Assembly: GCF_006345805.1 (NCBI RefSeq)
Contig: NC_043001.1
Span: 48,422,001 to 48,486,000 of the forward strand
From: Octopus sinensis
Lineage: Eukaryota
Direction of reading: 5' to 3'
Length of the DNA: 64,000 bases
Within the stretch, counting starts at the first letter, position 1, and every line of letters starts with the position of its first letter. The notes under the pieces were generated by a model. It saw only the letters and a list, made by a program, of their open reading frames with translations, had not been told where the DNA came from and ran no database searches. Of the stretch, positions 849 to 53,130 are shown one piece after another. The position numbers were made by a program, and so were the translations under genes.

Positions 849-972
849 ATTATGTTTCTTGCAGATATTATCTCCCAGGTAATCACCCCCACCAAACACA
901 CATCCGTGAACATAATTTGTCCTGAACGGACGTCTCAACCAGACTAATGTATATTTCATCGCTGTAAAATTT

Positions 973-989
973 CGTTGGTTTCAAGTACC
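973..989. repeat. Left copy of 17-bp target-site duplication cgttggtttcaagtacc
   Basis: Identical to 18458-18474; the two bracket the split SINE, the Tx1 LINE and the array. Confidence 0.9.
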
Positions 990-1172
990 TATTTCTTTAT
1001 TACCCACAAGGGGCTAAACACAGAGGGGACAAACAAGGACAGACATAGGTATTAAGTCGATTACATCGACCCCAGTGCGTAACTGGTACTTAATATATCT
1101 ACCCCGAAAGGATGAAAGGCAAAATCGACCTCGGCGGAATTTGAACTCACAACGTAACGCAGACGAAATACG
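990..1172 (-). mobile_element. Body and Tx1-like tail of a family A SINE whose head lies at 18434-18457
   Basis: Minus strand reads gtatttcgtctgcgttacgttgtgagttcaaattccgccgaggtcga...gccccttgtgggtaataaagaaata, collinear with the intact copies starting at 21168 and 50486. Confidence 0.9.
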
Positions 1173-1418
1173 AATTTCTTTATTGCCCACCGGGGGCCAA
1201 ACATAGATATGGACAGTACAACTGATGGGATCAGTGAATCGATATGATTTTACATAAATGTGACATCAAAAATAAAATACAATACATAAAAATCGAATGG
1301 AATACACAGTACAAAAACAAAAGAAATGAAGCGATGATCAAGTTACGCTCCGATCCCACAAGCCCCGATCTACCGCTGATACCTTTTTATTTTCTCTTTT
1401 TTTTTTCCTCGTATATTT

Positions 1419-4400
1419 TCACACGGTTCCTTGCACGCACAACACTCGTGCAACATACTTCCATCTCTTTTGGAACGTACACTCTGACAGACACCTCTTC
1501 TCCAGCCACAGTTTCCTTTTCAAATGAAAAGAAAAAAAGGATCGTAAATTGTCACCAGAGATAAAGTTGCCTGTCTTAATTCCTTATATCCTAGTATTCC
1601 ATACAGCCTCTTTTGCTATTGCTACAACCGTGAGAAAACAATTCTTACCTTCGTTCGTTAGAACTCCCGGTGGGTCAATTTTTATAATTGACTCAGTCGA
1701 CAGCCGTACTCTTCCTTCGCCGGACAACAGATGTTCAGCATAAGCCCACATTTCAGTTATCTCCGGACACTGAACAATAGCGTGAGGGACGGTTTCCCTG
1801 TCCCCACCGCATCTTGGACAGGTCGGCGACTGACGTTTACCATGTCTTGCGAGCTTATCCCAAACGGGCAAGGCACCTCTGTAGCATTGCCAGGTTAAGG
1901 ACTTTTGGAAGTTGTCCAACGTTCTCAACCCGAATGTACGATGAAACAAGCTGTCCAGTTGAATAAATCCGAGACCTAGAGTCGACCCCAGGCCATCGTC
2001 GCATTCAGACTCTACCAACCCACTATATAAAATCCGTGTGGAACCCCCACCGCTGGCGTTGCCCGAGCGCCGGAACAGCAAGAGGGCCTTACGGCACTCT
2101 TTATGCCACTCACTCGACCTCGGTCTACGAGAACACCAGGCTTCCTGTTCGCAAAAACTCTTGAACTCAGGGAACATTTGTCTGGCCAGCGGAGACCACA
2201 CCCCTTCACTATCCAGGAGAATCCAGAGGTGCCTCAACCTCAACGCATGTCTGCGCATCATTAACCAAGGCATCCCTAAACCTCCATTTAAAGGCTTTTG
2301 ACAGCAGACAGAGCGTTTCACAAGTGGCGACCTGCCCTTCCACAAAAAGCGAAAGAGCTGTCTCTCCAACCTGATCAACCACGAATCCGGACAGGGCACG
2401 ACAGTCAGGCGGTAGGTAATGACCGATGCGATAAACACATTGGCCACTTCCGCCCTCCCTTTCAGGGATAGCCACCGCCAAGACCAAGTCTTGACTACTG
2501 CAGCCACCCTGCTCAATACTCCGTCCAGTTCTTCTCTATCTGGAGGCCTGGTCCAAACCAGACTCCCAGCAACTTAACCGGTCCCTCCGTCCAGCGCCTA
2601 ACAACACTGTCTGAAGGCATCGACTTGCCAACCCAGGTGCCGAGCTGCAAGCCGACCGACTTTTCCCGGTTAATCTTTGCTCCTGCTACCTCCTCGTAAG
2701 CCTCAATAGTCTTACCTACTTCACGTAGGCGTACCACTGTGGTTACACTGATAGTGATATCATCCGCGAAAGCCGTAACAAACTCCTCTAGTCCTGGTTC
2801 TCTCGGGATGCCACTCAACCTTTGCAGTAATGGCTCGAGAGCCATCACATACAAAAGTGGTGAAAGCGGACATCCTTGACGAACCGAGCGTCTGATGCAG
2901 AACGGCTTCGAAAGGAAACCGTTCACCCGAACTATCGAGTCAATGTTGTGGTACAAAGCGATAAACCACCTGAGGAAGCCAAGGCCCAGGCCAAACCGCG
3001 CAAGTACAGTCGCTAGGTATCGATGGTCAACCCTATCAAAAGCTTTAGACTGGTCCAAATGCACCAAAGCCCCACCTTTGCCAGATTTATTACCAAACCT
3101 CTCTATGGTATAGCGAATAAGATGGAGGGTATCCTGAATGGTTCTGCCTGGGATGGCACATGTCTGTGCCTCCCCGACTATACCATTCGCGACACGCGCC
3201 AACCTTTTTGCTAGAACCTTGGCCAAAATCTTCACTTCTGCGTTTAACAGAGTGATGGGCCTGAAATTCTCTAGAACGTCCCCCTTGTCCGGGTCCTTTC
3301 TGACCAACGTCACTACTCCCCGGCGCACAGATCTGGGGATAAACCCATTCTGTTTCCAGTTCGCGTACACGTCAGTCAGTAGTTGCCCGAACAAGTCTGG
3401 CATACATTTATACAGCTCGTACGGAAGACCATCAAGTCCCGGTGACTTACCCGCTTTACAATCGGCCAAAGCCTCCATCACCTCCTCAAGTGTGATTGGC
3501 CCTTCGCAAGACTCCGCATCCGACCCCGAGAGGCACGGCAGCCCGGTAAGAAAGTCCTCGAGGGCTCTCCCACCACCAGGACCGCCGTCACCCCCGAACA
3601 GCTGGGCGAAGTACTCCCGAAAGACCTCACACATTTTCTCGGGTTCGTTTATCAAGACACCATTTTGATTCGTCAAAGACCGAATAGAGGAACTATTTCC
3701 TTGCCGAGCTTCCACCACTCGGGCCCATCCAGCGGCTTTGATTCCTTCACTTCCCATTGCACGTAACTTAGCTCTGGTAATACTTCCCATGTGGTGGGCT
3801 TCAAGATGCTGGTTTAACTCCAGTCTTTTCACCCTCGCTTGGTCTGTATTACCAGTCCTCCAGGCTTCTTCTAGTTCCTTAACTAGACCATCTCCTATTT
3901 TACGTCCCTTCTTAGCTAAACTTATGCTAAACCTAATAGACTCATATTTGATGGCTCTTTTTAGGGCGTACCACCATTTGTTATTAATGATGGTACCTGT
4001 TAATGCCCTCTGTATTAACATCTTGATCCGCTTTCTGTACTCCTCAATCGCCAAAAGGGACGTATTGAGTTTCCAGTAGCCAGATCCCTGTCTATGCAAC
4101 TTATCTACCGTCAGTTTACAGGTAACCATCTTGTGGTCACTGTAGCTGACTAGAAAAAACTGTGGACACTCAACTATGGACTTATCTTTTTCTCTAATTA
4201 AAATCCTATCTAGATATGTTCTGGTAGACCCGTCACTATTTGACCACGTCCACTGTGGAGTGTTCGGGTGCTCCAACCTATATGGATCTGCTAGCTGAAA
4301 TTGACTTAGCAGATCCCGAAAGCCTGTGTTACATTTTCTGTTCATGTTCGAGTTTGAGCCAACACAATCTGTGTGTGCTGCACATATTGTATTAGAGTCT

Positions 4401-4818
4401 CCTAACACTACTAGTGAATGCGACGTGGCTAGGAACTTTCCTAGGCCACGAAAATATTCAGTTTGCGGGCCAATAATGTTTGGTGCATAAATAGCGACCA
4501 GCCTGATTGTCTTGCCACAACTGAATGTCAAGTCGAGAACGACCAGCCTGCCTTCTGGGTCAGAAAAAACCAACTTTTTCTCGGCTACCCGGTTTCTTTT
4601 TAGTAGGACCAACACCCCACCCCCACCTCCGCCCGACTCGGAGAAACGTATTTCTCGTAGCCGTTCAGGAGGGGGAGCAGATCTCTTGGCCCCTTCACCC
4701 GGGTTTCCGTTGCAACAATTACATCCAAATTTCTCGACCTGATGTCATTCAGAAAGCGTCCTTGCTTCCAGCTTGACAACAGGCCATGAACATTTAAACA
4801 ACCAATGTGAATAGCCAT
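1419..4818 (-). pseudogene. Tx1 ORF2: APE endonuclease + reverse transcriptase + C-terminal zinc finger, disrupted
   Basis: Motifs GCLNVHGL, VLGDSN, LDRIL, SDH (APE); KSPGLDG, FRPITLLN, LDQSKAFDRV, RQGCPLSP, FADD (RT); CPRC..ETVPH..C. Frameshifts near 4610 and 2515 and a premature TAA at 1584-1586; the frame then continues to a TGA at 1419-1421. Confidence 0.92.
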
Positions 4819-6168
4819 CACTTACCTGTTTAATTAGGATTGTCCGGTGGAGGGGGACCCTCCACCTTTTTTTATCCAGGGTCGGAGGTGGACGGTCTTG
4901 GGAAATAGATTTGTCAAAATCCCGTCTCACCACCGACACAGAATTATCAGGTGGAGGGGGAATCTCCACCTTTTCCTTTTCTCGCGGGATCGGAGCTGGT
5001 AATCCATGAAATATCGACTTGTTAAAATCTAATCTCAATGAAGATACAGTCTTTCTGTACTTATTTTGTAGAATTCTATAAGTCTTATTTGAGACTTCAT
5101 ATATGTCGTAATTGATAAATTCCTCTGAAAGGTTATCAATTTTTTTACAGTCTTTATGAGTTGAATGTCTCTCATGAGCTCAGTATCTTTAGTGTATACG
5201 GCTATTATGTTTTTCTTCTTTTTCTCTTCTGGCAGTCTTTTTTGGTCGTTGTTCTGTAGTAGTCGCCGCTCTCGGCTGGGTTGCTGGTTGTATTTTTCTT
5301 TTGTTTGTGTTTTTTTTTCTCATCTGTTTCTTCTTTATCTTCTTCCTCTTTGTCTTTTTTCTCCTCTTCCTCCTCTTCTTCATTTTCCTTGCAGTTCCTT
5401 CGAATGTGGCCTAATTGACCACATAAAAAACATCGAGGTTTTCGGCCCTCAACAAACACCACGAGGTTCTCCTCCCCTACCTCAATTGTCTCAGGAATTG
5501 TTTGAATTATTTTAGGGTCCGCTTGAATGAGAAGATTAATTGTTTTACCATCCCAGCGTGGGTTTTCCGTAGCGGTAGCCTGGAGGAGAGTAATTTTTTC
5601 TACCTCTTTGATTAGGACTGCCGCCAACAACCACATAGGTTCGACCTCTGGCGGGACCCTTGTAATTTTTATTCGCGACGTCCTCATCCCCATATAATAT
5701 GGTATTAACTCTACGTCGTTCGTTTTCAACGTTTCCACTGAGTTCTTGTGTGCTATTTCTTTATTGGTGAACCTTACTTCCACCGTTCCGAATTTTTTTC
5801 CTCTTCTCAGAAATACTACGTCGCCCAATATTGGCTTTAAGCACTTTTCTATTTTCTCTTCTGACATTCTTTCAATTTTTCTATTTTGTAGACAATATGT
5901 TTTGAAAATTATTGTTTTTTGCTTTTCTTCCTGTAATAACTTTTGCGGAGGTTCAATTTTCACACTGTTGTCATTTATTTCCATCATTTTGCTGTATTTC
6001 ATAATTTCGCTTTTATTCGTCGACAGTATCTGGGTTCCACCCCCAGCAGCCAACGCAAATTTTTTTCCATTTTTTGGTTCTATCTGGATGCTAGGCACAT
6101 CAATTATTCTCTTCGACACAATGCCTTTGTTCTCTGGCAAAGTCGGAAACTCTTCTGGTGAAAGTTCT
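4819..6168 (-). pseudogene. Tx1 ORF1 (gag-like, CCHC knuckle), N-terminally truncated and frameshifted
   Basis: ORF 5205..6140 has CFLCGQLGHIRRNC and the blocks FLRRGKKFGTVEVRF and VFVEGRKPRC, homologous to the array ORF; Lys/Glu/Pro-rich tail continues in other frames. Confidence 0.85.
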
Positions 6169-6317
6169 TATTTCTTTATTACCCACTAGGGGCGACACAG
6201 AAAGGGACACTAAGAAACATGGGGACATATAACATTATAATTAAACTTTATGAACATGAATTGTTAAACGAAAAAATGATTAAATGAAAGCGATACCAAC
6301 GGCCCCGTCCGTCAGCA

Positions 6318-7732
6318 TCACTTACCTGTCCTTTGTTTTTCATAGTCACTTGAATGTTCCTTGCCAATACGAACAAATTCCATATCCATTCTTACTCCGA
6401 AATACTCATCCATATTTTCCACGAATTCATCGCTCATTCTTATATCTTTCACCTCCCAATTCTCGCATTCACACATCACCATAAAGTCACCTATGTTCTT
6501 CTTTTCAATCACAGCATACCTAGTCTCACCAACATCATACCATTTATACTCTTCCATTAGACTTTTAACTTCTTTCTGTTCAGTCATAGTACAAATGTAC
6601 GGCCTGATATCGATTTCAATCTCTTGTGTGTGTGTATTCTTTTTTTTCTTTTGTTTTCTTGTTGGGGGGGAGCGGGTGGGTTCAATGTCTGCATGGATAG
6701 GGTGGGACTCAGAGGGCGTGGGTGGTTTTGGGGTGGATTGGAGTTCCATATTATTTTCTTTTCCACGTATTCTTCTCTTCCTCTTACTTCCAGCTTCCTT
6801 CCATTTCTGTGTATTCTCTTCCTCTGTTTCCTTCTCCTCTGGTTTCTGCTTCTCTCTCTCTGGTTCGGGATCCATTTCTTTCCCTGGGGGAGGGCAGAAG
6901 GCTCTTATGTGACCCCTCAGGCCACACTTGTAACAACGTGGAGCCCTGCCCTCCACCCACACTCTCATGATCACTTCTCCCAGTCTGATGCTTTCCGTCA
7001 GGTCCACCAGTACCTCGGTCTCTGCCTGTACGTTCAGCTCCACTGTTACGCCTCTCCAGCCCTCGGACTTAACCGAGGCATGGAGAATATCCACTTCGTC
7101 CTCGTGGCCGCTGATCACAGCCGCCACAATCCATTCTGCCTCCACGTTTGGTGGCACTCCCTCCACCCTTATTCGTGTAATCCTCCTGTTTAAATACGTA
7201 GGTAACAGTGTTACCTTTTCCGACTTCACCGCCTTCGCTGCCATCTTCCTCGCTGCAGATTCACTTTTAAAATGCACAACTACGGTCCCATACTTGGATC
7301 CTCGAGTCAGAAAATTTATTTCCTCCTCAGTTCTTCGCAGGGCTTCCTCTATCCATTCCATGGTTACAACTTCTACCCTCTTCCTTTCGTTTGCGAACAC
7401 CCTGTAAAAATGGTCCTCTTATCATACCATTCTTTTCTCCTGGGTGTCGGTGATAGTTCCACCTCACCGCTTTCCTTTTTCATGTGTTTCTGGTAACTTG
7501 GTAGTTTGGCCAAGTCGACCCCTTTCTCTTCCGCCTTCTTGGTTACACCGGCATAAGTATAACTCAGCTTCTTTTCCAAATTCCTCGCTGCCATTTCTAG
7601 CTCCTTCTCAGACGTAGGCGAGTCTGATAAAGACTCGAAAACTCCAGCCTTTTCCTCCATCAGCTTCACTGCAATTGCCTGTTCCAGTTCCTCATCTGTC
7701 GTGGACAAGTCTGTTAGAGACTCATAGTCCAT
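6318..7732 (-). CDS. Array unit 1 ORF: Tx1-type ORF1/gag-like protein, about 471 aa once one frameshift near 7407 is corrected
   Basis: MDYESL...CYKCGLRGHIRAFC...RTGK*; 1415 nt with one base missing relative to the other copies. Confidence 0.8.
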
Positions 7733-8075
7733 TTCCTTCTGTCTGACAGACCGAAAACGGCCGCCAAAACAGAAAAAAGTTTAACGCGCTGAACGAGCGA
7801 AACGCGAAACCGCGTCAACGCCGTTCAGAATTTCCACAACAACAACAACGCTTTTTGTTCTTTTTTACCGAATTTTCAGGAGCCGAAAAAAACACAACCG
7901 ACGTCAAACGAAGTGCTAACGTTTCTTATTTCTTTATTACCCACTAGGGGCGACACAGAAAGGGACACTAAGAAACATGGGGACATATAACATTATAATT
8001 AAACTTTATGAACATGAATTGTTAAACGAAAAAATGATTAAATGAAAGCGATACCAACGGCCCCGTCCGTCAGCA

Positions 8076-9490
8076 TCACTTACCTGTCCTTTGTTTTTCA
8101 TAGTCACTTGAATGTTCTTTGCCAATACGAACAAATTCCATATCCATTCTTACTCCGAAATACTCATCCATATTTTCCACGAATTCATCACTCATTCTTA
8201 TATCTTTCACCTCCCAATTCTCCCTTTCACACCTCACCATAAAGTCACCTATGTTCTTCTTTTCAATCACAGCATACCTAGTCTCACCAACATCATACCA
8301 TTTATACTCTTCCATTAGACTTTTAACTTCTTTCTGTTCAGTCATAGTACAAATGTACGGCCTGATATCGATTTCAATCTCTTGTGTGTTGTATTCTTTT
8401 TTTTTTTTTTGTTTCTTGTTGGGGGGGAGCGGGTGGGTTCAATGTCTGCATGGATAGGGTGGGACTCAGAGGGCGTGGGTGGTTTTGGGGTGGATTGGAG
8501 TTCCATATTATTTTCTTTTCCACGTATTCTTCTCTTCCTCTTACTTCCAGCTTCCTTCCATTTCTGTGTATTCTCTTCCTCTGTTTCCTTCTCCTCTGGT
8601 TTCTGCTTCTCTCTCTCTGGTTCGGGATCCATTTCTTTCCCTGGGGGAGGGCAGAAGGCTCTTATGTGACCCCTCAGGCCACACTTGTAACAACGTGGAG
8701 CCCTGCCCTCCACCCACACTCTCATGATCACTTCTCCCAGTCTGATGCTTTCCGTCAGGTCCACCAGTACCTCGGTCTCTGCCTGTACGTTCAGCTCCAC
8801 TGTTACGCCTCTCCAGCCCTCGGACTTAACCGAGGCATGGAGAATATCCACTTCGTCCTCGTGGCCGCTGATCACAGCCGCCACAATCCATTCTGCCTCC
8901 ACGTTTGGTGGCACTCCCTCCACCCTTATTCGTGTAATCCTCCTGTTTAAATACGTAGGTAACAGTGTTACCTTTTCCGACTTCACCGCCTTCGCTGCCA
9001 TCTTCCTCGCTGCAGATTCACTTTTAAAATGCACAACTACGGTCCCATACTTGGATCCTCGAGTCAGAAAATTTATTTCCTCCTCAGTTCTTCGCAGGGC
9101 TTCCTCTATCCATTCCATGGTTACAACTTCTACCCTCTTCCTTTCGTTTGCGAACACCCTGTAAACAATGGTCCTCTTATCATACCATTCTTTTCTCCTG
9201 GGTGTCGGTGATAGTTCCACCTCACCGCTTTCCTTTTTCATGTGTTTCTGGTAACTTGGTAGCTTGGCCAAGTCGACCCCTTTCTCTTCCGCCTTCTTGG
9301 TTACACCGGCATAAGTATAACTCAGCTTCTTTTCCAAATTCCTCGCTGCCATTTCTAGCTCCTTCTCAGACGTAGGCGAGTCTGATAAAGACTCGAAAAC
9401 TCCAGCCTTTTCCTCCATCAGCTTCATTGCAATTGCCTGTTCCAGTTCCTCATCTGTCGTGGACAAGTCTGTTAGAGACTCATAGTCCAT
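8076..9490 (-). CDS. Array unit 2 ORF1-like protein (frameshift in T-rich tract near 8400)
   Basis: 382-aa and 89-aa ORF pieces join to give the consensus protein. Confidence 0.8.
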
Positions 9491-9832
9491 TTCCTTCTGT
9501 CTGACAGACCGAAAACGGCCGCCAAAACAGAAAAAAGTTTAACGCGCTGAACGAGCGAAACGCGAAACCGCGTCAACGCCGTTCAGAATTTCCACACAAC
9601 AACAACGCTTTTTGTTCTTTTTTACCGAATTTTCAGGAGCCGAAAAAAACACAACCGACGTCAAACGAAGTGCTAACGTTTCTTATTTCTTTATTACCCA
9701 CTAGGGGCGACACAGAAAGGGACACTAAGAAACATGGGGACATATAACATTATAATTAAACTTTATGAACATGAATTGTTAAACGAAAAAATGATTAAAT
9801 GAAAGCGATACCAACGGCCCCGTCCGTCAGCA

Positions 9833-11244
9833 TCACTTACCTGTCCTTTGTTTTTCATAGTCACTTGAATGTTCCTTGCCAATACGAACAATTCCATATC
9901 CATTCTTACTCCGAAATACTCATCCATATTTTCCACGAATTCATCGCTCATTCTTATATCTTTCACCTCCCAATTCTTCCTTTCACACCTCCCCATAAAC
10001 TCACCTATGTTCTTCTTTTCAATCACAGCATACCTAGTCTCACCAACATCATACCATTTATACTCTTCCATTAGACTTTTAACTTCTTTCTGTTCAGTCA
10101 TAGTACAAATGTACATCCTGATATCGTTTTCAATCTCTTGTGTGTGTGTATTCTTTTTTTTCTTTTGTTTTCTTGTTGGGGGGGAGCGGGTGGGTTCAAT
10201 GTCTGCATGGGTAGGGTGGGACTCAGAGGGCGTGGGTGGTTTTGGGGTGGATTGGAGTTCCATATTGTTTTCTTTTCCACGTATTCTTCTCTTCCTCTTA
10301 CTTCCAGCTTCCTTCCATTTCTGTGTATTCTCTTCCTCTGTTTCCTTCTCCTCTGGTTTCTGCTTCTCTCTCTCTGGTTCGGGATCCATTTCTTTCCCTG
10401 GGGGAGGGCAGAAGGCTCTTATGTGACCCCTCAGGCCACACTTGTAACAACGTGGAGCCCTGCCCTCCACCCACACTCTCATGATCACTTCTCCCAGTCT
10501 GATGCTTTCCGTCAGGTCCACCAGTACCTCGGTCTCTGCCTGTACGTTCAGCTCCACTGTTACGCCTCTCCAGCCCTCGGACTTAACCGAGGCATGGAGA
10601 ATATCCACTTCGTCCTCGTGGCCGCTGATCACAGCCGCCACAATCCATTCTGCCTCCACGTTTGGTGGCACTCCCTCCACCCTTATTCGTGTAATCCTCC
10701 TGTTTAAATACGTAGGTAACAGTGTTACCTTTTCCGACTTCACCGCCTTCGCCGCCATCTTCCTCGCTGCAGATTCACTTTTAAATGCACAACTACGGTC
10801 CCATACTTGGATCCTCGAGTCAGAAAATTTATTTCCTCCTCAGTTCTTCGCAGGGCTTCCTCTATCCATTCCATGGTTACAACTTCTACCCTCTTCCTTT
10901 CGTTTGCGAAACCCTGTAAACAATGGTCCTCTTATCATACCATTCTTTTCTCCTGGGTGTCGGTGATAGTTCCACCTCACCGCTTTCCTTTTTCATGTGT
11001 TCTGGTAACTTGGTAGTTTGGCCAAGTCGACCCCTTTCTCTTCCGCCTTCTTGGTTACACCGGCATAAGTATAACTCAGCTTCTTTTCCAAATTCCTCGC
11101 TGCCATTTCTAGCTCCTTCTCAGACGTAGGCGAGTCTGATAAAGACTCGAAAACTCCAGCCTTTTCCTCCATCAGCTTCATTGCAATTGCCTGTTCCAGT
11201 TCCTCATCTGTCGTGGACAAGTCTGTTAGAGACTCATAGTCCAT
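9833..11244 (-). pseudogene. Array unit 3 ORF1-like, several 1-bp indels
   Basis: 83-aa and 331-aa fragments of the consensus protein. Confidence 0.75.
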
Positions 11245-11587
11245 TTCCTTCTGTCTGACAGACCGAAAACGGCCGCCAAAACAGAAAAAAGTTTAACGCG
11301 CTGAACGAGCGAAACGCGAAACCGCGTCAACGCCGTTCAGAATTTCCACAACAACAACAACGCTTTTTGTTCTTTTTTACCGAATTTTCAGGAGCCGAAA
11401 AAAACACAACCGACGTCAAACGAAGTGCTAACGTTTCTTATTTCTTTATTACCCACTAGGGGCGACACAGAAAGGGACACTAAGAAACATGGGGACATAT
11501 AACATTATAATTAAACTTTATGAACATGAATTGTTAAACGAAAAAATGATTAAATGAAAGCGATACCAACGGCCCCGTCCGTCAGCA

Positions 11588-12996
11588 TCACTTACCTGTC
11601 CTTTGTTTTTCATAGTCACTTGAATGTTCCTTGCCAATACGAACAAATTCCATATCCATTCTTACTCCGAAATACTCATCCATATTTTCCACGAATTCAT
11701 CGCTCATTCTTATATCTTTCACCTCCCAATTCTCGCATTCACACATCACCATAAAGTCACCTATGTTCTTCTTTTCAATCACAGCATACCTAGTCTCACC
11801 AACATCATACCATTTATACTCTTCCATTAGACTTTTAACTTCTTTCTGTTCAGTCATAGTACAAATGTACGGCCTGATATCGATTTCAATCTCTTGTGTG
11901 TGTGTATTCTTTTTTTCTTTTGTTTTCTTGTTGGGGGGGAGCGGGTGGGTTCAATGTCTGCATGGATAGGGTGGGACTCAGAGGGCGTGGGTGGTTTTGG
12001 GGTGGATTGGAGTTCCATATTATTTTCTTTTCCACGTATTCTTCTCTTCCTCTTACTTCCAGCTTCCTTCCATTTCTGTGTATTCTCTTCCTCTGTTTCC
12101 TTCTCCTCTGGTTTCTGCTTCTCTCTCTCTGGTTCGGGATCCATTTCTTTCCCTGGGGGAGGGCAGAAGGCTCTTATGTGACCCCTCAGGCCACACTTGT
12201 AACAACGTGGAGCCCTGCCCTCCACCCACACTCTCATGATCACTTCTCCCAGTCTGATGCTTTCCGTCAGGTCCACCAGCACCTCGGTCTCCGCCTGCAC
12301 GTTCAGCTCCACTGTTACGCCTCTCCAGCCCTCGGACTCAACCGAGGCATGGAGAATATCCACTTCGTCCTCGTGGCCGCTGATCACAGCCGCCACAATC
12401 CATTCTGCCTCCACGCTTGGTGGCACTCCCTCCACCCTCATTCGTGCAATCCTCCTGTTCAAATACGTAGGCAACAGTGTTACCTTTTCCGACTTCACCG
12501 CCCTCGCCGCCATCTTCCTCGCTGCAGATTCACTTTCAAAGTGCACAACTACGGTCCCGTACTTGGATCCTCGAGTCAGAAAATTTATTTCCTCCTCAGT
12601 TCCTCGCAGGGCCTCCTCCATCCATTCCATGGATACAACTTCTACCCTCTTCCCTTCGTTTGCGCACACCCTGCAAACAATGGTCCTCCCATCATACCAT
12701 TCCTCTCTCCTGGGTGTCGGTGATAGCTCCACCTCACCGCCTTCCCCTTTCATGTGCTTCTGGCAACTTGGTAGCTTGGCCAAGTCGACCCCTTTCTCCT
12801 CCGCCTTCTTGGTCACACCGGCACAAGTATAACTCAGCCTCCTTTCCAATTTCCCTGCTGCCATTTCCAGCTCCTTCTCAGACAAGTCTGATAAAGACTC
12901 GAAAACTCCAGCCCCTTCCTCCATCAGCCTCACTGCAATTGCCTGTTCCAGTTCCCCATCCGTCGTGGACAAGTCTGTTAGAGACTCATAGTCCAT
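11588..12996 (-). pseudogene. Array unit 4 ORF1-like, A>G hypermutated
   Basis: 380-aa and 89-aa pieces with many K>R, K>E, E>G, Y>C changes. Confidence 0.8.
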
Positions 12997-13339
12997 TTCC
13001 TTCTGTCTGACAGACCGAAAACGGCCGCCAAAACAGAAAAAAGTTTAACGCGCTGAACGAGCGAAACGCGAAACCGCGTCAACGCCGTTCAGAATTTCCA
13101 CAACAACAACAACGCTTTTTGTTCTTTTTTACCGAATTTTCAGGAGCCGAAAAAAACACAACCGACGTCAAACGAAGTGCTAACGTTTCTTATTTCTTTA
13201 TTACCCACTAGGGGCGACACAGAAAGGGACACTAAGAAACATGGGGACATATAACATTATAATTAAACTTTATGAACATGAATTGTTAAACGAAAAAATG
13301 ATTAAATGAAAGCGATACCAACGGCCCCGTCCGTCAGCA

Positions 13340-14749
13340 TCACTTACCTGTCCTTTGTTTTTCATAGTCACTTGAATGTTCTTTGCCAATACGAATAAAT
13401 TCCATATCCATTCTTACTCCGAAATACTCATCCATATTTTCCACGAATTCATCGCTCATTCTTATATCTTTCACCTCCCAATTCTCGCATTCACACTCCC
13501 ATAAAGTCACCTATGTTCTTCTTTTCAATCACAGCATACCTAGTCTCACCAACATCATACCATTTATACTCTTCCATTAGACTTTTAACTCTTCTGTTCA
13601 GTCATAGTACAAATGTACGGCCTGATATCGATTTCAATCTCTTGTGTGTGTGTATTCTTTTTTTTCTTTTGTTTTCTTGTTGGGGGGGAGCGGGTGGGTT
13701 CAATGTCTGCATGGATAGGGTGGGACTCAGAGGGCGTGGGTGGTTTTGGGGTGGATTGGAGTTCCATATTATTTTCTTTTCCACGTATTCTTCTCTTCCT
13801 CTTACTTCCAGCTTCCTTCCATTTCTGTGTATTCTCTTCCTCTGTTTCCTTCTCCTCTGGTTTCTGCTTCTCTCTCTCTGGTTCGGGATCCATTTCTTTC
13901 CCTGGGGGAGGGCAGAAGGCTCTTATGTGACCCCTCAGGCCACACTTGTAACAACGTGGAGCCCTGCCCTCCACCCACACTCTCATGATCACTTCTCCCA
14001 GTCTGATGCTTTCCGTCAGGTCCACCAGTACCTCGGTCTCTGCCTGTACGTTCAGCTCCACTGTTACGCCTCTCCAGCCCTCGGACTTAACCGAGGCATG
14101 GAGAATATCCACTTCGTCCTCGTGGCCGCTGATCACAGCCGCCACAATCCATTCTGCCTCCACGTTTGGTGGCACTCCCTCCACCCTTATTCGTGTAATC
14201 CTCCTGTTTAAATACGTAGGTAACAGTGTTACCTTTTCCGACTTCACCGCCTTCGCTGCCATCTTCCTCGCTGCAGATTCACTTTTAAAATGCACAACTA
14301 CGGTCCCATACTTGGATCCTCGAGTCAGAAAATTTATTTCCTCCTCAGTTCTTCGCAGGGCTTCCTCTATCCATTCCATGGTTACAACTTCTACCCTCTT
14401 CCTTTCGTTTGCGAACACCCTGTAAACAATGGTCCTCTTATCATACCATTCTTTTCTCCTGGGTGTCGGTGATAGTTCCACCTCACCGCTTTCCTTTTTC
14501 ATGTGTTTCTGGTAACTTGGTAGCTTGGCCAAGTCGACCCCTTCTCTTCCGCCTTCTTGGTTACACCGGCATAAGTATAACTCAGCTTCTTTTCCAATTC
14601 CTCGCTGCCATTTCTAGCTCCTTCTCAGACGTAGGCGAGTCTGATAAAGACTCGAAAACTCCAGCCTTTTCCTCCATCAGCTTCATTGCAATTGCCTGTT
14701 CCAGTTCCTCATCTGTCGTGGACAAGTCTGTTAGAGACTCATAGTCCAT
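13340..14749 (-). pseudogene. Array unit 5 ORF1-like, several 1-bp indels
   Basis: 315-aa central fragment matches the consensus protein. Confidence 0.75.
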
Positions 14750-15090
14750 TTCCTTCTGTCTGACAGACCGAAAACGGCCGCCAAAACAGAAAAAAGTTTA
14801 ACGCGCTGAACGAGCGAAACGCGAAACCGCGTCAACGCCGTTCAGAATTTCCACAACAACAACAACGCTTTTTGTTCTTTTTTACCGAATTTTCAGGAGC
14901 CGAAAAAAACACAACCGACGTCAAACGAAGTGCTAACGTTTCTTATTTCTTTATTACCCACTAGGGGCGACACAGAAAGGGACACTAAGAAACATGGGGA
15001 CATAACATTATAATTAAACTTTATGAACATGAATTGTTAAACGAAAAAATGATTAAATGAAAGCGATACCAACGGCCCCGTCCGTCAGCA

Positions 15091-16503
15091 TCACTTACCT
15101 GTCCTTTGTTTTTCATAGTCACTTGAATGTTCCTTGCCAATACGAACAAATTCCATATCCATTCTTACTCCGAAATACTCATCCATATTTTCCACGAATT
15201 CATCGCTCATTCTTATATCTTTCACCTCCCAATTCTTCCTTTCACACCTCCCCATAAACTCACCTATGTTCTTCTTTTCAATCACAGCATACCTAGTCTC
15301 ACCAACATCATACCATTTATACTCTTCCATTAGACTTTTAACTTCTTTCTGTTCAGTCATAGTACAAATGTACATCCTGATATCGTTTTCAATCTCTTGT
15401 GTGTGTGTATTCTTTTTTTCTTTTGTTTTCTTGTTGGGGGGGAGCGGGTGGGTTCAATGTCTGCATGGGTAGGGTGGGACTCAGAGGGCGTGGGTGGGTT
15501 TGGGGTGGATTGGAGTTCCATATTGTTTCTTTTCCACGTATTCTTCTCTTCCTCTTACTTCCAGCTTCCTTCCATTTCTGTGTATTCTCTTCCTCTGTTT
15601 CCTTCTCCTCTGGTTTCTGCTTCTCTCTCTCTGGTTCGGGATCCATTTCTTTCCCTGGGGGAGGGCAGAAGGCTCTTATGTGACCCCTCAGGCCACACTT
15701 GTAACAACGTGGAGCCCTGCCCTCCACCCACACTCTCATGATCACTTCTCCCAGTCTGATGCTTTCCGTCAGGTCCACCAGTACCTCGGTCTCTGCCTGT
15801 ACGTTCAGCTCCACTGTTACGCCTCTCCAGCCCTCGGACTTAACCGAGGCATGGAGAATATCCACTTCGTCCTCGTGGCCGCTGATCACAGCCGCCACAA
15901 TCCATTCTGCCTCCACGTTTGGTGGCACTCCCTCCACCTTATTCGTGTAATCCTCCTGTTTAAATACGTAGGTAACAGTGTTACCTTTTCCGACTTCACC
16001 GCCTTCGCCGCCATCTTCCTCGCTGCAGATTCACTTTTAAAATGCACAACTACGGTCCCATACTTGGATCCTCGAGTCAGAAAATTTATTTCCTCCTCAG
16101 TTCTTCGCAGGGCTTCCTCTATCCATTCCATGGTTACAACTTCTACCCTCTTCCTTTCGTTTGCGAACACCCTGTAAACAATGGTCCTCTTATCATACCA
16201 TTCTTTTCTCCTGGGTGTCGGTGATAGTTCCACCTCACCGCTTTCCTTTTTCATGTGTTTCTGGTAACTTGGTAGCTTGGCCAAGTCGACCCCTTTCTCT
16301 TCCGCCTTCTTGGTTACACCGGCATAAGTATAACTCAGCTTCTTTTCCAAATTCCTCGCTGCCATTTCTAGCTCCTTCTCAGACGTAGGCGAGTCTGATA
16401 AAGACTCGAAAACTCCAGCCTTTTCCTCCATCAGCTTCACTGCAATTGCCTGTTCCAGTTCCTCATCTGTCGTGGACAAGTCTGTTAGAGACTCATAGTC
16501 CAT
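15091..16503 (-). pseudogene. Array unit 6 ORF1-like, several 1-bp indels
   Basis: 205-aa, 182-aa and 94-aa fragments. Confidence 0.75.
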
Positions 16504-16843
16504 TTCCTTCTGTCTGACAGACCGAAAACGGCCGCCAAAACAGAAAAAAGTTTAACGCGCTGAACGAGCGAAACGCGAAACCGCGTCAACGCCGTTCAGA
16601 ATTTCCACAACAACAACAACGTTTGTTGTTTTTTTACCGAATTTTCAGGAGCCGAAAAAAACACAACCGACGTCAAACGAAGTGCTAACGTTCTTATTTC
16701 TTTATTACCCACTAGGGGCGACACAGAAAGGGACACTAAGAAACATGGGGACATATAACATTATAATTAAACTTTATGAACATGAATTGTTAAACGAAAA
16801 AATGATTAAATGAAAGCGATACCAACGGCCCCGTCCGTCAGCA

Positions 16844-18253
16844 TCACTTACCTGTCCTTTGTTTTTCATAGTCACTTGAATGTTCCTTGCCAATACGAAC
16901 AAATTCCATATCCATTCTTACTCCGAAATACTCATCCATTTTTCCACGAATTCATCGCTCATTCTTATATCTTTCACCTCCCAATTCTCGCATTCACATC
17001 ACCATAAAGTCACCTATGTTCTTCTTTTCAATCACAGCATACCTAGTCTCACCAACATCATACCATTTATACTCTTCCATTAGACTTTTAACTTCTTTCT
17101 GTTCAGTCATAGTACAAATGTACGGCCTGATATCGATTTCAATCTCTTGTGTGTGTGTATTCTTTTTTTTCTTGTTTTCTTGTTGGGGGGGAGCGGGTGG
17201 GTTCAATGTCTGCATGGATAGGGTGGGACTCAGAGGCGTGGGTGGTTTTGGGGTGGATTGGAGTTCCATATTATTTTCTTTTCCACGTATTCTTCTCTTC
17301 CTCTTACTTCCAGCTTCCTTCCATTTCTGTGTATTCTCTTCCTCTGTTTCCTTCTCCTCTGGTTTCTGCTTCTCTCTCTCTGGTTCGGGATCCATTTCTT
17401 TCCCTGGGGGAGGGCAGAAGGCTCTTATGTGACCCCTCAGGCCACACTTGTAACAACGTGGAGCCCTGCCCTCCACCCACACTCTCATGATCACTTCTCC
17501 CAGTCTGATGCTTTCCGTCAGGTCCACCAGTACCTCGGTCTCTGCCTGTACGTTCAGCTCCACTGCTACGCCTCTCCAGCCCTCGGACCCAACCGAGGCA
17601 TGGAGAATATCCACCTCGTCCTCGTGGCCGCCGATCACAGCCGCCACAATCCATTCCGCCTCCACGCCTGGTGGCACTCCCTCCACCCCCACTCGTGCAA
17701 TCCTCCTGTTCAAATACGCAGGCAACAGCGCTACCCCCCCCGACCTCACCGCCCTCGCCGCCATCCCCCTCGCTGCAGATTCACCTTTAAAGTGCACAAC
17801 CACGGTCCCGCACTTGGATCCTCGAGTCAGAAAATTCACTTCCTCCTCAGTTCCTCGCAGGGCCTCCTCCATCCATTCCATGGACACAACCTCCACCCTC
17901 CTCCCTTCGCTCGCGCACACCCTGCAAACAATGGTCCTCCCATCACACCATTCCCCTCTCCTGGGTGTCGGTGACAGTTCCACCTCACCGCCCTCCCCCC
18001 TCATGTGCTTCTGGCAACTTGGCAGCTTGGCCAAGTCGACCCCCCTCTCCTCCGCCTTCCTGGCTACACCGGCACAAGTATAACTCAGCTTCCCCTCCAA
18101 ACTCCTCGCTGCCATTTCCAGCTCCTTCTCAGACGTAGGCGAGTCTGATAAAGACTCGAAAACTCCAGCCTTTTCCTCCATCAGCTTCATTGCAATTGCC
18201 TGTTCCAGTTCCTCATCTGTCGTGGACAAGTCTGTTAGAGACTCATAGTCCAT
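16844..18253 (-). pseudogene. Array unit 7 ORF1-like, heavily A>G hypermutated
   Basis: 419-aa ORF with K>R/G, E>G, Y>C, T>A, I>V changes concentrated in about 17566-18119. Confidence 0.8.
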
Positions 18254-18299
18254 TTCCTTCTGTCTGACAGACCGAAAACGGCCGCCAAAACAGAAAAAA

Positions 18300-18433
18300 G
18301 TTTAACGCGCTGAACGAGCGAAACGCGAAACCGCGTCAACGCCGTTCAGAATTTCCACAACAACAACAACGCTTTTTGTTCTTTTTTACCGAATTTTCAG
18401 GAGCCGAAAAAAACACAACCGACGTCAAACGAA
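18300..18433 (-). promoter_or_regulatory. CpG-rich 5' UTR of the array unit (candidate internal promoter; present in all seven units)
   Basis: Dense CpGs (cggcgttgacgcggtttcgcgtttcgctcg) and a CRE-like tgacgtcg upstream of the ATG. Promoter function is inferred from L1-group biology. Confidence 0.35.
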
Positions 18434-18457
18434 GTGCTAACGTTTCTGCCATCTCGC
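18434..18457 (-). mobile_element. 5' head (A-box region) of the split family A SINE
   Basis: Minus strand gcgagatggcagaaacgttagcac versus intact gcgagctggcagaaacgttagcac at about 50491. Confidence 0.85.
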
Positions 18458-18474
18458 CGTTGGTTTCAAGTACC
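18458..18474. repeat. Right copy of the 17-bp TSD
   Basis: Identical to 973-989. Confidence 0.9.
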
Positions 18475-18850
18475 GAGTTCAGTATTTCACGCGGTCAAAG
18501 TTATCCGCGAAAACGACCAGCATCTTACACACGGAGAAAGCATATTTCTTGTCAACTCATATTTACATTTAACCAAAGATAACAACCGGTTTTATGAATC
18601 CTTGTACTTCTACAGAAGAATAGCTTTATATGTCAGTTTTGTTGTCAATAGCAATCAATAATAAAACTTACTGCAGAGACATATTAGTGATAGGAAACAA
18701 TTAACTAAAAGAAATGCTATTTGTGTCAGGGTGAACTCGGATCGATTCATCGAGACAGACAAATACAGCCATTGTTGAAAGCTCGATGAATTGAAATAAA
18801 CAGTTGACTCGATATAGATAGAGATATAATAGATAAGTTATTTGGGAATA

Positions 18851-19210: not shown

Positions 19211-19332
19211 TAGTTCATATTTGTATATTTGAATGCAGTGAACATTATAAAGCTAACTAAAAATAATTATGATGTAAAGAAAAACAATATTAGTCAATAA
19301 CTGGTATTACTATAAATATTCAGGTTTGGGGT

Positions 19333-19570
19333 GGAGGCGTGTGGCTTAGTGGATAGGGTGATCGAAAGGTTGTGGTTTCGATTCCTGGACCGGGCAATGT
19401 GTTGTGTTCTTGAGCAAAGCACTTCATTTCACGTTGCTCCAGTCCACTCGGTTGGCAAAAATTAGTAAAGCTGCGATAGACGGGCGTCCCGTCCAGCTGG
19501 GGAACACATCCGCCATGGAAACCTGGAAACAGGGCCCATGAGCCTGGGTAGGCTTTCAAAGGGCGCGTTT
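19333..19570 (+). mobile_element. SINE family B
   Basis: ggcgtgtggcttagtgg A box and ttcgattcc B box, then cttgagcaaagcacttcatttcacg. Confidence 0.75.
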
Positions 19571-19596: not shown

Positions 19597-19873
19597 TGTG
19601 GAGCTGGCAGAATCGTTAACACGCCGGGCAAAATGCTCAGCATTTCGTCCGTCCTTACGTTCTCAGTTCAAATTCCGTCGTTCATCCTTTCGTGATCAAC
19701 GACGGGACACCAATCTATCGCAGTGTTACTCGTTTTGCCAGCTGAGTGAACTGGAGCAACGTGAAATGAAGTGTTTTGCTCAAGACCACAACGCGTCGCC
19801 AGGTCCAGGAATCGAAACCACAATCTTACAATCATGATGCTGACACCCTAACCACTAAGCCACGCGCCTCCAC
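19597..19873. mobile_element. Family A SINE head (+) fused to a family B SINE (-)
   Basis: gagctggcagaatcgttaac at 19601; reverse-complement family B head ending ccactaagccacgcgcctcc at about 19871. Confidence 0.7.
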
Positions 19874-21167: not shown

Positions 21168-21755
21168 AGCTGGAGCTGGCAGAAACGTTAGCACGCCGAG
21201 CGAAATGCGTAGCCGTGTTTCGTCTGCCGTTACGTTCTGAGTTCAAATTCCGCCGAGGTCGACTTTGCCTTTCAACCTTTCGGGGTCAATAAATTCAGTA
21301 CCAGTTATGCACTGGGGTCGATGTAATCGACTTAATCCGTTTGTCTGTCCTTGTTTGTCCCTCTGTGTTTAACCCCTTGTGGGTAGTAAAATAGTAAAGA
21401 AATAGAAATAGGTATTTCGTCTGCCGCTACGTTCTGAGTTCAAATTCCGCCGAGGTCGACTTTGCGTTTCATCCTTTCGGGGTCGATTAGATAAGTACCA
21501 GTTACGCACTGGGGTCGATATAATCGACTTAATCCGTTTGTTTATCCTTGTTTATCCCCTGTGTGTTTAGCCCCTTGTGGGTAGTAAAGAAATAGGTATT
21601 TCGTCTGTCTTTACGTTCTGAGTTCAAATTCCGCCGAGGTCGACTTTACCTTTAGGAGTCGATAAATTAAGTACCAGTTGCGTACTGATTTCTATCTAAT
21701 CGACTGGCGCTCTCTCGAAAAATTTCGGGCCTTCTGCTTAGAGTAGAAAAGAATT
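21168..21755 (+). mobile_element. Family A SINE trimer
   Basis: One full unit plus two headless units joined at gaaata|ggtatttcgtctg (21410/21411 and 21594/21595). Confidence 0.88.
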
Positions 21756-22082
21756 TCTCTTACTTGTTTCCGCCATTAGGCTGAGTCTATGTTGGGGCAA
21801 CACCTCGAAGAATTTTAGTCAAACAAATCGACTCTGGTATTCACCATTTTTTAAAGTCTGGTACTTATTCTATCGGTCTCTTTTGGTCAAACCTCTAAGT
21901 CACGGGAACGTAAACACTCCAACACAGATTATCAGGCGGTGGAGGGAAACAAACACAGACAAAAATACACACACACAATGATACATACATATATGCATAC
22001 ATACATAAAGGCATATCTATTTATATCTGTGTGCATACGCGTATACGAAGGGCTTCTTTCAGTTTCCATCTACCAATTTTGG
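21756..22082 (-). mobile_element. SINE family C, partial
   Basis: gtacttattctatcggtctctttt and gggcttctttcagtttcc blocks. Confidence 0.7.
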
Positions 22083-28906: not shown

Positions 28907-28910
<4 letters not shown>

Positions 28911-29033
28911 TAAGCAATAAGGGTTTAGCAACGAGTTGCCTTACCACATACCGAATTTAGAAATAGCAGACTGCTATTTCTAAATTCGGTATGTGGTAAG
29001 GCAACTCGTTGCTAAACCCTTATTGCTTAGTAT
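28907..29033. repeat. Perfect palindrome, 63-bp arms, 1-nt centre at 28970
   Basis: atactaagcaataaggg...aaatagcag-a-ctgctattt...cccttattgcttagtat. Confidence 0.95.
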
Positions 29034-30450: not shown

Positions 30451-30762
30451 TATATATTCATATGTATGCTGAGATACTCATTCACGATACTTTCTGGCAT
30501 GGATTAAAGTTGTCATGCACGCACGCACAAACACACACACACACACTCACACACACATACACACACACACACACACACTCACATACCTATATTCACGCAG
30601 ACGAAAGATGCATGTACACACATATGACGACCGGAGACAACCTAGACACAAGCACGCACAGCCATCAGCTTATATCCTGTTGTGGCAAGAGCACGACACT
30701 CCCTGACGAGAATAGACAGGACCACTACATATAAATTGTAACAGTCTGACGTAATCGGCAGT

Positions 30763-31771
30763 GGACGGTGAGCGGGTGTGGTCTCCGTTCGTTGATGAGA
30801 TATTTCCCAGGTTCACCTCTTTTGGTGAACTGGAATGCCGGATCAGGCGTAGACGAAGGCTAGGAGCTTAGCAAACAGAGTATCGATAGGCATTCGTGCT
30901 TCTCTCCCGAACGAGCAATGCCGGCGGAGGGGATACCACCTCGGCGTACTATAGAGGGCTGGTAGAGGGTAAGTGTGATGACGGCCTAGGGGAGACTCTG
31001 GGTTTCTATGAAAGTCATCTTGCCAACCTGCATCGAAGGACTTTCTGCCCGGGACCTATGGACAACTTCCAGAGGTCCCTGGCTTGGCTGTGCTTCCGAA
31101 GTGCTTTGCCAGTTTGGGATAAACTCACGAGGCACGGCATCACGGCTTCGCCTACGTGTTCACGTTGCGGGCAGAGCAACGAAATTGTTCTGCATGCAAT
31201 CGTACAGTTTCCAAGTCTCTCGGACATGTGGGTTTCTACCGAACGTGTACTGTCACAAGTGGGGAGAGTACAGATGTCAGCCGAATCGATTATCAAGATT
31301 GTTCCGCCGTCTCCTCTAAAAGGAGAAAAGAAATTCTGCTTTCTAGTCGAAATAAATATAGCGAAAGAGATGATAGGGAAGACTCGTGGAAGAAGTGTCG
31401 CATGAGGCACTTTCGTCTCCAGGCATGTTTTGGTTAACCTCTTTTTATATCACCTAATGGGGAAAGCAGGTCTGGAGAAGAAATCCCTGACGTCAAAAAA
31501 GTATGAAAAAAAGATGGGAGAAAGTAGCTCGAATATTGGCTATGTAAGTGCCTAATGAAGCAGAGTAAAAAAAAATAAAGGACGAAGTAAACGTTTCGAC
31601 GCAGGAATGTGGTTGGTGGGGTCAACCCATTCCGCGTCCATTCATTTTCTTTTCATTTTCATCAGAAGCTATAATGTATTTATTCATATATGTAATATTC
31701 GAGAAGTCCCCGACGCCATTTGTCCCGTGAATTGTCGCCTCTTTGTTTAGCCCTTGTGGTTTGAAAAAAAA
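30763..31771 (+). mobile_element. 3' fragment of a second Tx1-family LINE inserted in the Gypsy 5' LTR
   Basis: ORF 30896..31405 aligns to the ORF2 C-terminus at 1584-2100 (DNFQRSLAW, ALPVWDKL, ESIIKI); ends gtttagcccttgtggtttgaaaaaaaa. Confidence 0.85.
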
Positions 31772-32029
31772 TCATCGAATTTGATCTTTGAAGTCTAGGT
31801 ACAGTTTACAGTCCGAGTTAGTGTGTTGGAAGCATTGATTGTTGGTTCGTTACGTGTTTGTTACTGCCGCTGTTTCTATTTTGCATTGTTATAACACTGT
31901 TACAGTGTATTTCTTTATCTATCATCGACAATATCAACCGTACTACGATATTGGAAGCTTAAAGATATAACATCTAGCAACGAGCGTATTTGACAGTTTG
32001 TGCGTCATGCACAGTATTAAGTTATGGAG

Positions 32030-35508: not shown

Positions 35509-36308
35509 ATTTCTTTGTTCCTTTGGAAATCGAAATCTCAAAAGGGGAGATATTGTGGCGAGAGTACGACACTCCCTGACGAGAATAGACGGGACCACTA
35601 CATATTAATAGTAGTGGTCTGACGTAATCAGCAGAGCAGTTCCTAGTTTGGTCTTCGAAGTCCAGGTACAGTTTACAGTTCGAGTTAGTGTGTTAGAAAT
35701 ATTAATTTTTGTTTTGTAAAAGATTGTTTGTTACTGCCGCTGTTTCTATTTTGTATTGTTATAACACTGTTACAGTGTATTCTTTATCTATCGTCAACAA
35801 CATCAACTGTACAACGATACTGGAGGCTTAAGGATATAACATATCCGTAATGTAAAAACGGAACTGTGATAAAGAGTTATATTTAACTTATATATATACG
35901 CACACATGCAACTCTGCTTTCGCCACCAGTAAAAGTTCCAAGTAGGAAGGCACCATCCTTCAAAGCTCTTCGTTGCATGTCTAGAAAATGGTCTTTAAAA
36001 ACACTCGACCAGACAGGTGCGTGAACAACAACGGCGGATGACTAACACAACTCCGATTCGCAATAATATTGTAAAATTCGCCGAACACTACAAATCAGCT
36101 GCAGGTCGCGCAGACAGAGCTGGACACTCATAGTTCATGAGTAGCTTGAAAATGAATGCTTGGAAGTAAAATACATGCAGCTCGAAAACAACATGAGGCT
36201 GAATAGAGATTGGAAGTGAGAAAATCGAGGATTACGTTTACTTGGGACACAGAGAATATGTACCGAGACATGGAAGATGAAATCTCGAGCAGAATATACT
36301 TATATATA

Positions 36309-43494: not shown

Positions 43495-43629
43495 CCTAGT
43501 TGTGTGGTAGGACATGCTTCCAGGTTCAGTCCCACTGTGTGACACCTTGGGCAACTGTCTTCTACTATAGCCTTGGACTGACCAAAGCCTCATGAGTTGG
43601 TAGACGGAAACTGAAAGAAGCCCGTCATA

Positions 43630-43698
<69 letters not shown>

Positions 43699-43960
43699 AC
43701 GTGCTTATTTCAGTTATATATGTTTATATCTATGTGCGTGTGTATTTATGTCTGTGTTTGTATCCCCACCATCGATTGACAATCGGTGTTGGTATATTTA
43801 CGTTCCAGTAACTTGACGGTTCAGCAAAAAAGACCGATAGAATAAGTACTAGGCTTTAAAATATAAAGCGTGGAGTCGATTTTTTCGATTAAAACTCTTC
43901 AAGGCAGTGCCCCAGCATGGCCGCAGTCAAATGACTGAAACAAATAAAAGATAAAAGATA
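43495..43960 (+). mobile_element. SINE family C with internal (TA)n
   Basis: ggttcagtcccactg...gaccgatagaataagtact...catggccgcagtcaaatgactgaaacaa. Confidence 0.8.
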
Positions 43961-43999
43961 TTCACAACCAACTCTTTCATGCCTTTATCTATTACTCTT

Positions 44000-44210
44000 T
44001 CTACTCTTTTACTTGTTTCAGTCATTTGACTGCGGCCATGCTGGAGCACCGCCTCTAGTCGAGCAAATCGACCCCGGGACTTATTCTTTGTAAGCCCAGT
44101 ACTTATTCTATCGGTCTCTTTTGCTGAACCGCTAAGTGATAGGGACGTAAACACACCAGCATCGGTTGTCAAGCAATGCTAGGGGGACAAACACAGACAC
44201 ACAAACATAT

Positions 44211-44243
<33 letters not shown>

Positions 44244-44410
44244 CATATATATACGACAGGCTTCTTTCAGTTTCCGTCTACCAAATCCACTCAAGGCATT
44301 GGTCTGCCCGGGGCTATAGCAGAAGACACTTGCCCAAGATGCCACGCAGTGGGACTGAACCCGGAACCATGTGGTTGTTAAGCAGGCTACTTACCACACA
44401 GCCACTCCTA
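44000..44410 (-). mobile_element. SINE family C, tail-to-tail with the previous copy
   Basis: ttgtttcagtcatttgactgcggccatg...cttaccacacagccactcc. Confidence 0.85.
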
Positions 44411-53078: not shown

Positions 53079-53130
53079 ATACACACACACACACACCACA
53101 CACACACACATATATATATATATATAATAT

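Follow-up and report, generated by a model that had tools for sequence, protein, structure and literature searches.

The locus described here raises the question as to why three different kinds of retroelement end in the same sequence, and whether a common ending also implies a common route into the genome. It lies in a window of 64,000 nucleotides from Octopus sinensis (NCBI RefSeq assembly GCF_006345805.1, contig NC_043001.1, positions 48,422,001 to 48,486,000 of the forward strand), and all results rest on this one 64-kb stretch. The elements in question are a long interspersed element (LINE) of the Tx1 clade, seven tandem units that carry only a relative of the first LINE open reading frame (ORF1), and a family of short interspersed elements (SINEs), which we call family A. 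Their shared 3' tail is beyond chance, their insertion target is probably shared as well, and one family A copy has been split by the LINE and all seven units.

The four 3' ends on which the first-pass annotation had based its claim of tail sharing were all recovered: in the SINE (990-1014, minus strand), the LINE (1173-1197, minus), the first ORF1-only unit (6169-6193, minus) and a second LINE fragment, LINE2 (31750-31772, plus). The same motif is present in the six further unit copies and in four further SINE tails (ending at 21410, 21594, 50717 and 50901). In the SINE, the common tail (990-1035, minus) consists of a TGT-rich block, a GCCC-N5-GGGU hairpin and AATAAAGAAATA. Global alignment of the last 50 nt matches the SINE tail at 990 to those of the LINE (38/52), the unit (39/51) and LINE2 (38/52), and the LINE tail to that of the unit (38/52). 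None of 17,576 background 50-mers from the window scores as high as any of these four matches, and this holds when the last 12 nt, which contain AATAAA, are removed; sharing among SINE, LINE and unit is therefore real and independent of the AATAAA block. LINE2 is the weakest member, since it lacks the AATAAAGAAATA block and matches the LINE at only 29/53 (19 of the 17,576 background windows are as high, and 165 without the last 12 nt) and the unit at 33/53 (three windows as high). The LINE tail (1173-1217, minus) is the sole DNA in common with the ORF1-only unit (78% over 45 nt, with nothing else significant in blastn), and has outlasted all other DNA similarity of the two. Sharing beyond chance, in the only DNA that LINE and unit have in common, argues for selection or capture of the tail. 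A scan for the tail pattern in a bacterial and archaeal genome set gave no matches.

Is the tail read by a reverse transcriptase (RT)? Every tail-bearing end stops 6 nt past A(A/G)TAAA (AGTAAA in four of the five SINE tails), and none carries poly(A). The mini-hairpin predicted earlier is indeed conserved, as GCCC-N5-GGGY with a variable loop, and is paired in 30 of 31 cells. The covariation check proposed for it turned out differently: across eight sequences, none of the four stem pairs shows two-sided changes, an outcome equalled by 373 of 500 shuffles. Because the hairpin is conserved but lacks compensatory change, the notion of a stringent Tx1 RT with two non-autonomous clients survives in part: the Tx1 clade, the shared tail and the ends without poly(A) stand, whereas stringency is suggested rather than demonstrated, and the RNA would be recognised via the tail.

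The LINE itself (1173-6168, minus) is 5'-truncated in ORF1 and frameshifted in ORF2 near position 2519, and its 3' end abuts nt 45 of a SINE head (numbered after the copy at 50490). Its Pfam domains are zf-CCHC, Exo_endo_phos, RVT_1 and zf-RVT. An ORF2 piece at 2513-4744 (minus) contains an apurinic-type endonuclease and the RT, and an ORF1 remnant with a zinc knuckle (5205-6167, minus) is truncated on its 5' side by unit 1. In a midpoint-rooted tree of 51 rows, none dropped, the RT sits in a 36-row clade with Xenopus Tx1L (support 98/97), separate from the rows of vertebrate L1, plants and Dictyostelium, the L1 rows being labelled by domains or host and uncurated. Tree, zinc knuckle, endonuclease and RT together bear out the earlier placement of the LINE in the Tx1 clade. 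The family has a single copy in the window and that copy is broken, so the ORF2 donor would be a related Tx1-clade LINE. LINE2 (30762-31772, plus), a diverged Tx1-like 3' fragment with a partial tail (52% amino acid identity over 208 residues to the first LINE), lies inside an unrelated repeat: its flanks (30680-31973) match an unclassified repeat 4 kb away (35553-35842), which has an empty site near 35634-35647. About 12 nt of the target differ from the empty copy, and no clear target-site duplication was found there. Between the two ORFs of the first LINE, at 4846-4871 and 4949-4972, are two related near-palindromic GGTGGAGGGGG..CTCCACC motifs, which are possible hairpins.

The SINE at 990 had been recognised by its tail, and correctly so, but its role as host of the LINE and the units, and as a common insertion site, had been overlooked. 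Two identical 16-bp sequences (16/16), at 974-989 downstream and 18459-18474 upstream, form a target-site duplication. Inside it, on one side, lies SINE head nt 1-25 (18458-18434, minus strand; 24/25 identical to copy 50490, nt 12-25 being common to the unit start), and on the other everything from head nt 45 to the end of the new-type tail (1172-990, minus; 91% over 187 nt to nt 45-231 of copy 50490). Positions 990-18458 (974-18474, or 17.5 kb, with the duplication) are thus a single SINE copy, a short, non-coding family A member flanked by its 16-bp duplication and interrupted by the LINE and seven ORF1-only units. The pre-insertion site reads C|GGTACTT, similar to head nt 44-51, C|(C/G)GTATTT. 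Head nt 26-44 are missing from the composite; to account for this and for the lost 5' end of the LINE, either a deletion or a microhomology join has to be assumed.

Family A elements are about 230 nt long and are represented by at least 11 pieces, whose alignment shows a common head and body followed by either of two tails. As had been noticed, other copies carry a different tail: five old-type ends score like background in the tail comparison while sharing the same head and body. Bodies of new-tail copies are 93% alike vs. 71% for old-tail copies, making the new tail the younger acquisition. The proposal that the SINE swapped LINE partners is right as to the swap of tails; a change of partner may be read from this swap, but an old-tail LINE partner was not found in the window. 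New-tail copies also form dimers. One (21173-21594, plus) comprises a full unit and a unit starting at nt 45, with a slippage-like repeat in the first tail (21390-21410), and its 3' end is joined to an old-tail SINE that likewise starts at nt 45 (21595-21757, plus). The second dimer copy (50490-50901, plus) has a second unit 98% identical in body to 21411-21594, the first units being 91-94% identical. No convincing target-site duplications flank the multimers at 21173 and 50490. ARAGORN and Rfam gave no match supporting a tRNA origin of the head; by eye, we take TGGCAGAAACG at head nt 8-18 to be A-box-like and GAGTTCAAAT to be B-box-like, and the family presumably resembles other octopus SINEs. 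A further tandem, of two old-tail pieces (52737-53081), is joined at around body nt 123 and not at nt 45.

Do the tail-sharing elements also share a target? After merging non-independent cases, eight distinct 3' junctions of tail-bearing elements are available; those at 21411 and 50718 were rejected as independent insertions, their second units being 98% alike, and count once. Three of the eight are at head nt 45, namely the LINE (1173), the dimer-internal joint (21411/50718) and the dimer onto the old-tail SINE (21595). A fourth is at head nt 12 and stands for all six unit-unit joints, five of which read AGAAACGTTAGCAC and one of which has a base missing. Half of the junctions therefore fall in the SINE head, with the LINE family having one copy in the window, against a published criterion of >20% of flanks in one repeat (PMC4494074). 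A fifth junction is the host SINE's own landing site in non-SINE DNA, the look-alike described above. Heads with GCATTT at the nt 45 site (676, 19640, 45157, 52778, 52913 and 56790) are uninterrupted and interrupted heads read GTATTT, although numbers are small. Given the three junctions at nt 45, the units at nt 12 and the resemblance of the SINE landing site to nt 45, we conclude that these elements share their tail and probably their target.

The ORF1-only units lie head-to-tail (6169-18447, minus) and measure 1751-1758 bp each; every unit opens with the 14 nt of SINE head nt 12-25 and closes with the common tail, and within the window they are found only in this array. Each unit (~1755 bp) has one ORF1-like frame and no ORF2 remnant. 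HMMER finds 341 relatives of this frame at E<=0.001; a search for it among longer proteins gave no match, which, the frame being partial, says little. Since its ORF1 is 31% identical to that of the LINE and the DNA in common is confined to the last 45 nt, the unit is no deletion product of the adjacent LINE, a possibility we rule out; judged by its sequence, it is most readily described as a HAL1-like element from a sister LINE lineage. The array has a three-unit periodicity (units 3 and 6 differ by seven substitutions, and units 4 and 7 share edits), for which reason seven independent insertions are rejected; part of the array may be a DNA duplication or an assembly error. Many private one-base deletions among the units suggest an imperfect consensus. 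The 14 nt that separate successive units look like a re-created duplication, and could also be a captured 5' end.

Two units carry tracts of A>G change, counted against the column majority. In unit 7 (tract 17566-18119, minus) 69 of the 79 differences are A>G, 68 of them in the tract, with no G>A and no indel in the tract; in unit 4 (12280-12961, minus) they make up 39 of 54 differences. The other five units have 0-2 each. The A>G changes of both units are on the sense strand and confined to the two tracts. The share of changed adenines depends on the 5' neighbour, being 20/28 after T, 42/65 after A, 4/26 after C and 2/63 after G in unit 7, and 15/31, 20/75, 2/34 and 2/82, respectively, in unit 4. 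ADAR enzymes prefer 5' neighbours in the order U>A>C>G, and the tracts fit this order as well as the expected clustering on one strand (strand and neighbour bias, p=3e-18). The available part of one ADAR paper (PMC7531822) has no statement of the order. A>G is the derived state, because the synonymous share is neutral (22/68 vs. 22.7 expected), the LINE ORF1 as outgroup agrees with the unedited residue nine times vs. three, and homologues favour the unedited state in 33 of 38 differences, albeit with an unedited unit as query, which biases the last test toward that state. The opposite polarity, with G>A changes in the majority units, is rejected by these tests. A polymerase-eta-like origin of A>G at W-A was also rejected, 68 changes among 182 adenines being far above that enzyme's error rate. 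The pattern suggests, from sequence, that units 4 and 7 derive from edited RNA intermediates, with ADAR as the likely cause; if genomic, the tracts show an RNA intermediate for the unit.

Taken together, we consider the following explanation rather probable as a whole. Related Tx1-clade LINEs would recognise RNA by the ~45-nt 3' tag and use target-primed reverse transcription to insert it at C|NGWA-like sites, here C|(G/C/A)G(T/A)A, reflecting a putative endonuclease preference with its hot spot at family A head nt 45, and reverse transcription would be primed at a fixed point 6 nt past A(A/G)TAAA. A younger SINE subfamily would have captured the tag, an ORF1-only, HAL1-like element of a sister LINE lineage would have kept or captured it, and both would borrow ORF2 in trans. 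As to the probable order of events, a SINE copy would have landed at a look-alike site, creating the 16-bp duplication; the LINE would next have entered at nt 45, and ORF1-only units would have piled up at nt 12, each separated from the next by a 14-nt duplication. A microhomology join at AGAA(A)C or unit-unit recombination would later have removed head nt 26-44 together with the 5' end of the LINE; part of the array may have been copied at the DNA level, and two units may have passed through ADAR-hyperedited RNA. The slippage-like repeat at 21390-21410 counts in favour of this scheme.

Several observations weigh against it. Besides the missing covariation, folding of the tail is weak (z-scores of 11 tail pieces range from +0.80 to -2.44, and only the unit 60-mer is below -2). 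Each SINE multimer has one head only, of the new type, and nested insertion predicts a leftover target head upstream. The look-alike landing pattern, with six matches in 128,000 positions, was defined after the junctions were seen, and three of the eight junctions do not fall on a head site, namely those at 50901 and at LINE2 and the join of unit 1 to LINE ORF1, whose reading at AGAAC is ambiguous. For the editing part, no inverted repeat that could provide double-stranded RNA exists within the unit, and none >26 nt in 900-18600, local folding of the unit reaching a z-score of only -2.5; of the 29 W-A sites edited in unit 4, 25 are edited in unit 7 too (p=0.008), and the two units have four non-A>G variants in common. 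The three-unit periodicity and the query bias in the homologue comparison belong here as well, as does the restriction of the evidence to one window.

The main rival of the targeting mechanism is template jumping, in which the RT follows one RNA as far as a fixed 5' stop (in SINE RNA, a cut or a stall at nt 45) and then switches to the tagged 3' end of the next, so that chimeras are single insertions and no head-specific endonuclease is needed. The single new-type head of both SINE multimers, the lack of head nt 26-44 in the composite and the recurrence of the same breakpoint would all be accounted for. We nevertheless regard it as improbable: head nt 1-11 lie directly inside the upstream duplication and nt 45 to the end inside its downstream counterpart, the arrangement expected of a single original SINE; the SINE landing site in non-SINE DNA resembles nt 45; and all six unit-unit joints begin at nt 12. 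The tail might also be inherited baggage or a polyadenylation element, a LINE 3' end picked up once, with SINE and unit moved by a relaxed, poly(A)-reading RT. AATAAA lies within the last 12 nt, covariation is absent, LINE2 has lost the AATAAAGAAATA block, and tail sharing with SINEs is rare among L1-clade LINEs (3 of 58 pairs; PMC3472496), all of which speak for this reading; yet the similarity remains without the last 12 nt, the tail survives where other LINE/unit DNA similarity is gone, no copy has a poly(A) end and four of five SINE tails read AGTAAA, leaving this quite improbable.

A different objection concerns the array and its A>G tracts, which could come from DNA-level tandem duplication, assembly error or RNA-read polishing instead of repeated retrotransposition of edited RNA. 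We think this somewhat unlikely, although it explains the three-unit periodicity, the private one-base deletions (typical of long-read consensus) and the sites and variants common to units 4 and 7. It explains less well the 68 A>G changes without an indel in the unit 7 tract, the extreme strand and neighbour bias and the edits in unit 4 that are absent from unit 7; a described artefact of Sanger traces, G-to-A in AGA/AGG (PMC2873906), has another pattern. It also leaves the tail and the 16-bp duplication untouched. Returning to tag-directed insertion, it can be joined to editing in a more ambitious reading, which we put forward as possible but doubtful: a Tx1 lineage with sequence-specific 3' recognition would target the promoter head of its own client SINE, at once cargo and self-renewing landing pad, giving nested SINE/LINE/ORF1-only arrays, and ADAR-hyperedited ORF1-only transcripts would have entered the germ line by reverse transcription on two or more occasions, possibly via two editing rounds, as a heritable editing record.

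Other repeats in the window include a second short repeat family with two inverted copies (19331-19493 and 19701-19873; 81% over 174 nt) that enclose a truncated head of family A, and a similar inverted pair of a third family (43512-44372). A near-perfect 127-bp palindrome (99%) at 28907-29033 gives only sub-threshold microRNA models in Rfam. Hammerhead ribozyme HH9 is weakly matched at 62869-62939 (31 bits against a gathering score of 52 bits, E 7e-4), which could mark a Penelope-like or retrozyme remnant.

Why would such a locus matter? In the L1/Tx1 group few SINE partners share a tail with their LINE (the 3 of 58 pairs of PMC3472496), and with tail and target both readable, the locus offers a small testable system for how Tx1 ORF2 chooses RNA and DNA. 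Targeting of one's own SINE, if true, would offer a cheap safe harbour, one that expands along with the host family, and would mislead repeat annotation, with dimers and arrays being called families or satellites. Should DNA reads confirm the A>G tracts as genomic, these would be direct evidence of ADAR acting on retrotransposition intermediates and feeding back into the genome, a role that a 2016 review called undetermined for Alu (PMC4982230). Octopus papers report L1-Tx1 and abundant SINEs, in the available parts without pairing or target (PMC13282606, PMC8967140, PMC9115989, PMC4824008), and the families may already be catalogued in the octopus repeat library of PMC13282606 (Zenodo). We found no report of a Tx1 SINE tail, targeting of a client's own head or hyperedited genomic LINE copies in a search that left most subscription papers and the Repbase reports outside.

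Target-specific non-LTR (long terminal repeat) elements that use other mobile elements are already known (PMC8869645), as is target specificity among Tx1 elements (PMC4494074). Xenopus Tx1L (UniRef YTX2) has the same ORF1 zinc knuckle, apurinic-type endonuclease and RT, falls in the same clade and also inserts into another mobile element (PMC4494074); its RT region is 36% identical to that of the octopus LINE and its target is a piggyBac-type element. Closer in arrangement is the crocodilian Tx1-Mar/SINEU system (Kojima 2015, PMC4494074), in which a Tx1-clade LINE and a SINE share a target in another repeat, two target hot spots are used by different families, and tandem insertions (SINEU-3) sandwich a duplication, of 16 bp there and 14-16 bp here. 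In that system the elements insert into a Mariner DNA transposon and are linked by target preference, whereas here there are a 45-nt shared tail, the client SINE's own head as probable target and an ORF1-only client. Stringent SINE/LINE pairs, including LINE1-1_ZM/ZmSINE2-3 and L1-1_CR/SINEX-3 (Ohshima 2012, PMC3472496; Ohshima 2013, PMC3747384), likewise share ~45-50 nt of 3' end with a predicted hairpin, and the three pairs of the L1 clade given in the available part of the table come from plants or algae; the hairpins of the stringent pairs show compensatory changes and -10.8 to -17.7 kcal/mol, in contrast to 4 bp, no compensatory change and -2.7 to -6.5 kcal/mol (30-nt ends) here. Mollusc SINEs also join one head and body to different tails, in an account that, where available, has no target-site link or nesting (Matetovici 2016, PMC4758252). 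Finally, HAL1, HeT-A and Ag-Sponge (Kojima 2018, PMC5786205) resemble the unit in having an ORF1 protein only, a LINE 3' end and a need for partner ORF2, but derive from L1, Jockey and CR1, unlike the unit, whose ORF1 is related to Tx1-clade ORF1 (31%) and which is stacked at one SINE-head site. By analogy, the octopus system would appear to combine a shared target of the Tx1-Mar/SINEU type, the tail of a classical stringent pair and a HAL1-like client.

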